The notes under the pieces: generated by a model | What the model was told of the DNA's origin: nothing | Seen by the model: only the letters and a program-made list of their open reading frames with translations | Database searches by the model: none | Source: Candidatus Korarchaeum cryptofilum OPF8 | Lineage (GTDB): Archaea; Korarchaeota; Korarchaeia; Korarchaeales; Korarchaeaceae | Length of the DNA: 32,000 nt | NCBI RefSeq assembly: GCF_000019605.1 | Contig: NC_010482.1 | Span: 1,170,001-1,202,000 of the forward strand | Direction of reading: 5' to 3' | Translations under genes and position numbers: made by a program | Shown here: positions 25,359 to 26,969 of the stretch, piece after piece | Layout of the letters: each line of letters begins with the position of its first letter | Position numbering within the stretch: the stretch's first letter is position 1

Positions 25359-25562
25359 TTATACGAGAGTCCCTTGCCTCTCTCTGACCTTCAGTCTTGT
25401 TATGTAGCCAGCTATTCTATTCCTGTACACCTTGGATTTTATCTCGGCTATCTGAGATAAGATCATCTTATTATGCTCAAAATCCTCAGTCCATAGATCA
25501 GGGTACTGTTTTACAAGCTTGTATGCCACTCTCTTTATCGCCCTCTCCCTTACCGTCCCCAT
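25359..25562 (-). CDS. rps17e: 30S ribosomal protein eS17
   Basis: MGTVRERAIKRVAYKLV...YRNRIAGYITRL matches archaeal S17e. The start is placed at the internal ATG (25562), because homologues start with MG(N/R)(I/V)R and a TTAATAAT box lies 30-40 nt upstream. Confidence 0.85.
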   Translation of the reverse strand: MGTVRERAIKRVAYKLVKQYPDLWTEDFEHNKMILSQIAEIKSKVYRNRIAGYITRLKVRERQGTLV

Positions 25563-25623
25563 ATCGATCCTCGAATTGGAGCACCAGCCATTATTAAGCA
25601 TTACCACTTATGGGCCGAAGAGA

Positions 25624-25631
25624 TTATATTT
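25624..25631 (+). promoter_or_regulatory. TATA box positioned for the candidate H/ACA sRNA
   Basis: TTATATTT is centred 26-27 nt upstream of 25654, the first base of the long GC-rich stem. Confidence 0.45.
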
Positions 25632-25653
25632 AGCGACAAGTGACGTATTAATA

Positions 25654-25737
25654 CCGCCCGCCACCAGATGACCCCGGAGGTAGAGAGGAAAGCGTGGGCT
25701 GATCCATGACCTCTGGGGACTAGTTGGCGGGCGGACA
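25654..25737 (+). ncRNA. candidate single-hairpin H/ACA box guide sRNA
   Basis: 10-bp lower stem CCGCCCGCCA/TGGCGGGCGG. Internal loop of 8 nt (CCAGATGA) and 6 nt (ACTAGT). 10-bp upper stem CCCCGGAGGT/ACCTCTGGGG with one G-U. 27-nt GA-rich apical region. ACA follows the lower stem immediately, 16 nt from the upper stem. Confidence 0.5.
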
Positions 25738-25763
25738 TTGAGTTTAGGGGGAGGATTAGCTTT

Positions 25764-26969
25764 ATGGAGAGTAAGAAGGAGGCTACACACCCTAAATATA
25801 TTGCTAAGCTTGAAGTATCGGTAAATGGTGCCGTGGAGACTAGCGATGTCATAGGAGCTATATTCGGGCAGTTGGAGGGACTTCTAGGCCCTGAATTAGA
25901 ACTTAAAGACCTTCAAAGGACTGGAAAAATTGGTAGGATAAATATAAAGTTGAGGAGAGAGGGGGAGGGTTCAAAGGGGATAGTTGAGCTCTACTCAGGA
26001 CTAGATAAGGTAAGGACTGCCCTTTTAGTCGCAGCCATGGAGACCATCGATAAAGTCGGTCCATATCAGGCGAACTTCAAGCTCATAAAGATAGTAGATG
26101 AGAGAGAAGAGAGAAGGAATGATATAGCGAGGAGAGCTGCTGAAATACTGAAGAATTGGTCAATAGAGAAGGAGGATAGCTTCAGAAGGCTCATAGAATT
26201 TGTAGAGAGGGAGAGCGCTAAGTCAAACTTCATACTATACGGGGAGGAGCAGTTACCGGCTGGCAGAGGGATAGAGGAAGCTTCGGAGATAATAGTAGTG
26301 GAGGGAAGAGCGGATGTCATGAACTTGCTTAAGTACGGTTTTGATAATGTAATAGCCATGGGAGGAGCTTTAGAGAGAGTTCCTAAATCTTTAGAGAAAT
26401 TAATAGAAGAGAAGGAAGCTATAGCTTTCGTAGATGGAGATAGAGGTGGTGAAATGGTCCTAAGGACTCTTTTAGAGCAAACAGATATAGATTATGTGGC
26501 TAGAGCACCTGAGGGAAAGGTAGTAGAGGAATTGACCGCTAAGGAGATAAGAAAAGCCCTCTCGTCCGCTGTACCAGCGGATGAAGTGAGGAGGGAACTA
26601 GGGATATCTCCGCCTAAAGCTAAGCCCTTTGTCGAGCCTGAGGCGCATGAAACGAGGCCGGCTAGGGAGATAAATGAGAGGATAATTAGAGTACCGGAGG
26701 TGTTCAGGGGGTTCTATGAGAGGGTAATGAATACGGATAAGGTTCTACTCCTAGATGAGGATTTCAGGATCCTCAAGGAGACATCTGTCGCAGAGCTTTT
26801 GAATGAGCTCAATGAAACGAGGGGTGTGAGATACATAATATATGATAGGATAGTCACCCAGAGGATAGTCGATAAGGCTTACGAGATCGGTGTCAAGGCG
26901 ATAGTTGGAAATGTCGCTAAGGATATCGTGAGGAAGGGCGCTGGTCTCGCGATCTACACGATCCAGTGA
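25764..26969 (+). CDS. dnaG: archaeal DnaG-like primase (Toprim protein, exosome-associated)
   Basis: N-terminal KYIAKLEVSVNGAVETSDVIGAIFGQLEGLLG. Toprim motifs VVEGRADV and VDGDRGGE. GGGGGAGG SD. Confidence 0.9.
   Translation: MESKKEATHPKYIAKLEVSVNGAVETSDVIGAIFGQLEGLLGPELELKDLQRTGKIGRINIKLRREGEGSKGIVELYSGLDKVRTALLVAAMETIDKVGPYQANFKLIKIVDEREERRNDIARRAAEILKNWSIEKEDSFRRLIEFVERESAKSNFILYGEEQLPAGRGIEEASEIIVVEGRADVMNLLKYGFDNVIAMGGALERVPKSLEKLIEEKEAIAFVDGDRGGEMVLRTLLEQTDIDYVARAPEGKVVEELTAKEIRKALSSAVPADEVRRELGISPPKAKPFVEPEAHETRPAREINERIIRVPEVFRGFYERVMNTDKVLLLDEDFRILKETSVAELLNELNETRGVRYIIYDRIVTQRIVDKAYEIGVKAIVGNVAKDIVRKGAGLAIYTIQ

Follow-up and report, generated by a model that had tools for sequence, protein, structure and literature searches.

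A probable single-hairpin H/ACA-class RNA encoded 5' to dnaG in the class Korarchaeia

What is encoded in the intergenic gap that separates the divergently transcribed genes eS17 and dnaG in a complete archaeal genome of 1,590,757 bp? The window analyzed here is the 32,000-nucleotide stretch G000:C1:1170001-1202000 of this genome, and within it the gap is flanked by eS17 (minus strand, probable start ATG 25562) and dnaG (plus strand, ATG 25764). A preliminary description had proposed that a hairpin RNA ending in an ACA triplet lies here behind its own TATA box, and that it might be an H/ACA pseudouridylation guide. On re-reading the sequence, all coordinates given in that description for the region 25622-25763 proved correct. 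The features of the element, including those that became visible from comparison with related genomes, are as follows (window coordinates).

25611-25649 (+): promoter block, with a BRE-like GAAGAG, the TATA box TTATATTT at 25624-25631 and a conserved spacer
25654-25663 (+): 5' strand of the lower stem, P1; pairs with 25725-25734 in 10 bp, 8 of the 10 pairs changing on both sides
25664-25671 (+): 5' strand of the pocket, CCAGAUGA; 25664-25667 vary freely, AUGA is kept in most lineages
25672-25680 (+): 5' strand of the upper stem, P2; pairs with 25710-25718 in 9 bp including G25676.U25714, 8 of the 9 pairs changing on both sides
25681-25684 (+): non-bulged strand of the K-turn; U25681 is position 2n, A25682 is 1n, G25683 and A25684 form the 5' strand of the C-stem
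25685-25689 (+): purine bulge GAGGA; GAGG (25685-25688) is invariant in 38/38 sequences
25690-25701 (+): apical mini-hairpin P3; 25690-25693 pair with 25698-25701 around a GUGG loop
25702-25709 (+): bulged strand of the K-turn; A25702, C-stem U25703-C25704, L1-L3 at 25705-25707 (N N U), G25708 (1b), A25709 (2b)
25710-25718 (+): 3' strand of P2
25719-25724 (+): 3' strand of the pocket, ACUAGU; AYUAGU in five genera, AUUGY in g5, AUCAGU in g7
25725-25734 (+): 3' strand of P1
25735-25737 (+): ACA box, abutting P1
25738-25763 (+): spacer of 26 nt, carrying the dnaG Shine-Dalgarno sequence GGAGG (25750-25754)
25764-26969 (+): dnaG, 401 aa, transcribed behind the RNA

Fold and conservation of the hairpin

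The lower stem was found to consist of 10 Watson-Crick pairs, as originally drawn, and the internal loop, the 27-nt apical part and the ACA triplet 16 nt from the upper stem were likewise as described. The upper stem had been given as 25672-25681/25709-25718 with one G.U pair; these coordinates and the wobble pair stand, but we prefer to assign the tenth pair, U25681-A25709, to position 2n.2b of a K-turn. The centre of the box TTATATTT lies 26-27 nt before C25654, and the transcript is predicted to start near 25653. The minimum free energy of the + strand was -49.4 kcal/mol, compared with -30.1 +/- 3.5 kcal/mol for shuffled sequences (z = -5.5), and none of 200 shuffles equalled it; the hairpin fold is thus not a product of chance. 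In a crude scan of intergenic regions for hairpin-plus-ACA elements with a GC-rich 8-bp basal stem, no other candidate folded nearly as well. Rfam gave nothing at the gathering threshold over the whole window, nor at E <=10 on positions 25550-25800 (251 nt), and no published description of this RNA was found in the literature.

The element was detected by blastn in all 20 sister genomes of the genus, where the promoter block is nearly invariant, and in two further genera. A covariance model of the element, R1, identified exactly one copy per genome in 38 of the 43 genomes of the phylum. These matches span all three families of the class Korarchaeia; by family they comprise 33 of 35 genomes in f1, both genomes in f2 and both in f3, and there are none in f4 or f5. 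In a class-wide alignment of 38 sequences (A3), 95.1% of cells pair, compared with at most 50% when the partners are slid against each other, and both sides change in 19 of 25 pairs; none of 500 shuffles reached the observed values. The two main stems contribute changes on both sides in 16 of their 19 pairs, and 98.6% of the cells of P1 are paired. In P3, 24 sequences have A-U and 11 have G-C at 25691-25700, and the pair 25690-25701 is A.G, C-G or U.G. Compensatory changes in the stems of related genomes, proposed earlier as a check, are therefore found. Sense matches to R1 scored 45-111 bits (100-111 within the genus), and the antisense strand, where it scored at all, 22-28 bits. From the distribution of R1 matches, the covariation and the strand scores, the H/ACA-type architecture is real, conserved and carried on the + strand.

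K-turn, ACA box and protein partners

The preliminary description allowed for a K-turn in the apical part, but could not draw a canonical one. A K-turn is in fact present, formed by 25681-25684 with 25703-25709, and it is plain from the sister genera, where its form is canonical: in g3 the end of the upper stem reads U.U, then G.A, then A.G, and g2 and g4 have G.A/A.G. In the present genome A25682 stands opposite G25708 (1n.1b) and U25681 opposite A25709 (2n.2b), with a 3-nt loop at 25705-25707. The C-stem consists of two base pairs, G25683-C25704 and 25684-25703, the second of which is A-U in 16 sequences, G-C in 16 and G-U in five, but never A-C. At the sequence level, then, the C-helix, the 3-nt bulge and the tandem G.A/A.G positions are all in place, and the A, the C and the UGA of the bulged strand do not vary among the 38 sequences. 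At position 2n the present genome has U; g2, g3 and g4 have G, and part of g5 has A. U or A at 2n is a natural variant in K-turns of the Kt-23 type, U being the commonest in ribosomal Kt-23, and the structure of a K-turn with A at 2n has been solved in complex with L7Ae (PMC3985660). The korarchaeal motif resembles Kt-23 in having U or A at 2n while A1n, G1b and A2b are kept (PMC3985660); it differs in that Kt-23 is ribosomal, and the binding of L7Ae to the korarchaeal element is predicted only.

Counted from the pocket-closing pair to the second G.A, the stack has 10 layers in g2-g6, g7 being less securely read, and 11 layers in the present genome. A 10-layer 'GA stem' has been described as the structural feature on which the function of archaeal H/ACA RNAs chiefly depends (PMC4652768); the stack of the sister genera fits this rule, but the 11 layers here count against an H/ACA reading. 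In the ACA box the CA is invariant, and the full ACA is found in 34 of 38 sequences; the UCA that replaces it in four g2 genomes was also counted against this reading. The distance from ACA to P2 is 16 nt in g1-g4 and g6, 15 nt in g5, and 14 or 16 nt in g7. A distance of 16 nt is at the top of the general range of 14-16 nt and exceeds the 14-15 nt seen in productive Pyrococcus folds. Neither the invariant GAGG bulge nor the GC-clamped GUGG hairpin above the K-turn (25685-25701), both kept in all 38 sequences, is explained by the H/ACA model.

Three other readings of these elements were rejected. The sequences AGAUGA, CUGA and UGA could suggest a box C/D RNA; however, a D box is absent, and conservation does not extend to the first GA of the supposed C box. 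A second K-turn or loop-E motif in the pocket would call for GA on the 3' strand, which reads AG. An alternative register of P2 that uses the repeated GAGG is contradicted by covariation, for example in L008. A descriptor scan and a hairpin-ACA scan of the genome yielded no convincing second H/ACA RNA; judged by these scans, the complete genome holds no clear H/ACA-type RNA other than the present element.

The genome encodes an intact Cbf5 (389.6 bits, with DKCLD, TruB and PUA domains) and L7Ae (104.9 bits); a Gar1-like ORF is weak, at 18.9 bits compared with a Pfam cut-off of 29.3. No nop10 was found in the complete genome by Pfam Nop10p, by tblastn with korarchaeal Nop10 or by a custom HMM run on all ORFs of at least 25 aa. 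In sister species Nop10 is short (36-44 aa, zinc ribbon only) and is encoded between aIF2-alpha and the next gene; this short form is present in 13 of 20 sister genomes. The corresponding slot in the present genome (G000:C1:1519730-1520046, L108:231-547) is about 255 bp shorter and is empty: nop10 is deleted from its syntenic position. The nearest relatives are also without nop10, and three of these genomes are 99% complete. Two Nop10 candidates were discarded, that at 1025979 being the zinc knuckle of aIF2-gamma and that at 340927 a chance motif, out of frame. We noted separately that korarchaeal Nop10 proteins match only positions 4-37 of the 52-position Pfam model.

Linkage to dnaG and comparison with HgcG

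In all seven genera examined, the RNA is located directly 5' to dnaG, on the same strand and behind a TATA-like box, which in the other genera lies 22-30 nt before the lower stem. The claim that the RNA has its own TATA box is thus borne out by the sequence here and by the placement of the box across genera. In most cases the spacer between RNA and dnaG could not accommodate a second promoter, and the 26 nt found here leave no space for one. No terminator-like site was found before dnaG. Since such a site is lacking and the sole promoter lies upstream of the RNA, co-transcription with dnaG, as suggested in the preliminary description, is supported. Because the RNA lies between the TATA box and dnaG in all seven genera, it either stays on the dnaG transcript as a 5' leader or is excised from it. 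On the other flank, eS17 is adjacent only in g1; it is more than 1.2 kb away in g3, and several other genera showed no eS17 within about 1.5 kb.

A comparable arrangement was found for HgcG, an H/ACA RNA recognised by Rfam. Matches to the HgcG model are located 5' to dnaG and on the same strand in G049, G054, G055 and G058, with G049 reaching the gathering score. Altogether, HgcG-type RNAs occur 0.14-3.9 kb upstream of dnaG in five families, represented by G049, G054, G055, G056 and G058; loci of HgcG-type RNAs near dnaG are L110:373-651 (+), L119:3347-3519 (-), L118:3941-4146 (-) and L126:1213-1346 (+). In G048 and G053 the HgcG-type RNA is not linked to dnaG. Between the RNA and dnaG, G049 and G054 carry first a gene for a small DUF167-like protein (a label judged by eye) and then one for a small Toprim-like protein. 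In G058 the RNA is a single hairpin resembling HgcG motif 3; it has a TATA box of its own and lies about 140 nt upstream of dnaG. The best match to R1 outside Korarchaeia (E 2.9e-7) is the last hairpin of the G056 RNA, itself a weak Rfam HgcG match (E 0.003, far below the gathering score). That recognised H/ACA RNAs are also found 5' to dnaG in five further archaeal families suggests that the association of H/ACA RNA with dnaG is old. We found no description of this gene-order link in the literature; it hints at co-expression of the machineries of RNA modification and RNA decay.

HgcG (RF00064; Pab40/Pf7/Afu4) shares with the korarchaeal RNA the succession of hairpin, pocket, hairpin, K-turn and ACA, a 3' location of the K-turn's bulged strand, a GC-rich lower stem of 9-10 bp and the same-strand position upstream of dnaG. 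The third hairpin of HgcG is the part most like the korarchaeal RNA. There are distinct differences as well: HgcG has three hairpins rather than one, the korarchaeal RNA obtains no score with the Rfam model, and the pocket sequences are unrelated (AUGA/AYUAGU in Korarchaeia, GGUUAG/UGUUA in HgcG). In our own reading of the sequences, the motif-3 guides of HgcG fit the loop of 23S helix 69; the korarchaeal pocket does not. A second point of comparison is provided by Pab91 and Pf9, which likewise have one hairpin, a K-turn or K-loop, an ACA box and a stack of about 10 layers, and binding of L7Ae and Cbf5 is expected as for these RNAs. Single-hairpin guides of this type have 23S targets shown by experiment (PMC2377435). 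The korarchaeal RNA differs from them in having no detectable target, a 16-nt ACA distance and an extra invariant apical module.

The pocket and its possible functions

All six positions of the 3' strand of the pocket are kept, as are the four positions of the 5' strand beside P2, the GA of AUGA being invariant in the class-wide alignment; the four positions beside P1 vary, even within the genus. As judged from the aligned sequences, this conservation is of the guide type, and a target of the form 5'-RYURGU-U-N-UYRU-3' would be implied. For the present genome the preliminary description had predicted the target 5'-ACUAGU-U-N-UCAUCUGG-3'. We searched for it in 8.9 kb of stable RNA, comprising 16S, spliced 23S and 5S rRNA, 45 tRNAs (both unspliced and spliced), RNase P RNA and SRP RNA. 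The 23S sequence was scanned with its intron of about 545 nt after helix 69 removed; the scans of 16S, 23S and 5S were contiguous as well as mismatch-tolerant, with both U-N and U-N-N spacing, and the rRNA spacers were covered by contiguous scans only. The predicted target is absent from these stable RNAs. The best match has 8 of 10 pairs, a level that 93% of shuffled guides reach, and 11% of them reach at least 9. Thus the rRNAs and tRNAs hold no bipartite site above the level of shuffled guides. When the guides of six lineages (the present one and five others) were compared with their own rRNAs, no common two-armed site emerged. Genome-wide, the exact target pattern has 13 matches, all inside ORFs; about 24 would be expected by chance.

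Several individual sites were considered and discarded. Helix 69, which the pocket does not fit, and the exon junction of 23S were rejected as targets. At 23S U919 (GCUGGU-UC) the 3' guide pairs in five of six lineages, but chance alone would give about two such sites, and the 5' guide makes no pairing there. The two intergenic matches from genome-wide pattern searches, at 1362763 in a 5'-UTR hairpin and at 148663 in a 3'-UTR, show no sign of a stable RNA; the latter site has no Rfam match and a fold z of -0.6.

Some features of the genome observed during these searches deserve mention. A near-perfect, AT-rich hairpin of 17 bp is found at G000:C1:1362755-1362814 (+), just 3' of a TATA box and 5' of an ORF. 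Within it, AUUGGU-UA-UCAC agrees with the pocket in 9 of 10 positions, probably by chance. The 23S gene carries an insertion of about 545 nt at G000:C1:1330224-1330768 (L032:3536-4080), directly 3' of the 3' strand of helix 69 (CUCUCUU / AAGGUAGCC). This insertion, probably an intron, is missing in four of five other korarchaeal 23S genes, the fifth (G030) having a short, remnant-like insertion at the same place. ARAGORN called a tRNA-Leu(GAG) interrupted by a 1370-nt intron, together with a tRNA whose anticodon has four bases (ccag), at G000:C1:616705-618162 and 210707-210805, and no tRNA-Trp in the genome; these calls may be artefacts, or unusual split or intron-bearing tRNAs.

The proposal that the RNA is an H/ACA guide therefore holds in part. 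Architecture, TATA box, the invariant CA and the height of the K-turn agree with it; the target, full conservation of the 5' pocket and nop10 do not. By architecture, conservation and genomic position, we consider it likely that the element represents a new family of single-hairpin box H/ACA-class sRNAs, present class-wide in Korarchaeia. It is an orphan, and the guidance of a particular pseudouridine is unsupported; to our knowledge, target-less guide RNAs are rare in archaea. Protein binding, processing and a catalytic guide function are inferred from the features described. In the sequence of events that we propose, transcription would begin at about 25653, directed by the RNA's own TATA box, and would continue into dnaG, with the RNA forming the 5' end of that transcript. 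L7Ae would bind the K-turn (25681-25684 with 25703-25709), Cbf5 and the Gar1-like protein the 10-bp lower stem, and the ACA box would be held by the PUA domain. The bound proteins would shield an RNA of about 85-90 nt, which may be trimmed from the dnaG leader or left on it, and the conserved pocket, AUGA on its 5' side and AYUAGU on its 3' side, would be laid out as a bipartite antisense element.

The H/ACA-class reading adds an uncatalogued, class-wide structured RNA to Korarchaeia. It also couples an orphan guide with a clade that has lost nop10, and nature here offers a test: can particles of Cbf5, L7Ae and H/ACA RNA work, or do something else, without Nop10?

The position of the RNA could also suggest a cis-acting element in the 5' leader of dnaG mRNA, a K-turn hairpin that controls the stability or translation of the dnaG-pelota message. 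Its binder would be L7Ae, or DnaG or the exosome acting through the purine-rich GAGGA bulge, and the resemblance to H/ACA RNAs would be convergent or a relic of a former guide. The invariable location directly 5' to dnaG with the only promoter upstream, seen in 7/7 genera even though DnaG identity is 46-56%, agrees with such a role, as do the unmaintained adjacency of eS17, the negative target search, the retention of the RNA here after nop10 was lost, and the invariance of the GAGG bulge and the GUGG hairpin, neither of which is needed for any H/ACA function. The structure, however, is clear of the Shine-Dalgarno sequence and the start codon and has no conserved alternative pairing with the former; the variable sequences of P2 rule out sequestration by this stem. 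Nor would a leader element need an ACA box abutting a 10-bp stem, a guide-type pocket and a K-turn exactly 10 layers up. Moreover, recognised H/ACA guides hold the same pre-dnaG position in other archaea, so that position alone is no proof of regulation. A leader element is the main rival reading, but appears rather unlikely to us.

The sRNA and leader readings are not mutually exclusive. They could be combined in an H/ACA-type RNP module that has no target and, in the K. cryptofilum clade, no Nop10, that no longer guides pseudouridylation, and that is kept class-wide as the leader of dnaG, which encodes an exosome subunit; there, binding of L7Ae and Cbf5, or the GAGG bulge, would serve control of dnaG or an rRNA chaperone function. 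This combination also strikes us as improbable; if true, it would be an archaeal parallel to the non-modifying H/ACA RNAs of eukaryotes.

Among the latter, snR30/U17 is an H/ACA snoRNA needed for the processing of 18S rRNA and not for pseudouridylation. By analogy with it, the korarchaeal RNA might act in trans, as a chaperone or processing factor that would pair with pre-rRNA through its pocket. Both RNAs have the H/ACA fold and conserved internal-loop elements and lack a target uridine, and loss of nop10 would be tolerable if catalysis were not needed. On the other hand, snR30/U17 is eukaryotic, has two hairpins and pairs through its pocket elements with expansion-segment sequences of 18S; no complementarity of this kind was found for the korarchaeal RNA, inverted or split complementarity being absent from mature 16S, spliced 23S, 5S, RNase P RNA and SRP RNA. 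We know of no archaeal precedent, and this proposal, a speculation by eukaryotic analogy, has in our view very little likelihood.

Finally, the element might be no RNA at all but a DNA palindrome for a regulator of divergent eS17 and dnaG promoters, or a small ORF, as the divergent gap, the good fold of the reverse strand (z = -6.8) and the overlapping mechanical ORFs of 60-83 aa could suggest; this is contradicted by the strand asymmetry and the covariation, since the many G.U pairs would be A.C on the other strand, sense scores within the genus far exceed antisense scores, compensatory changes keep the pairing rather than the sequence, and the element stays with dnaG where eS17 is distant or undetected, so that we give it almost no weight.

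With respect to eS17 itself, the mechanical ORF (window 25359-25607, minus strand) starts at GTG 25607. The conserved N-terminus of the protein, MGTVRER, begins at ATG 25562, which gives a gap of about 200 bp to dnaG, and the eS17 mRNA is probably leaderless.
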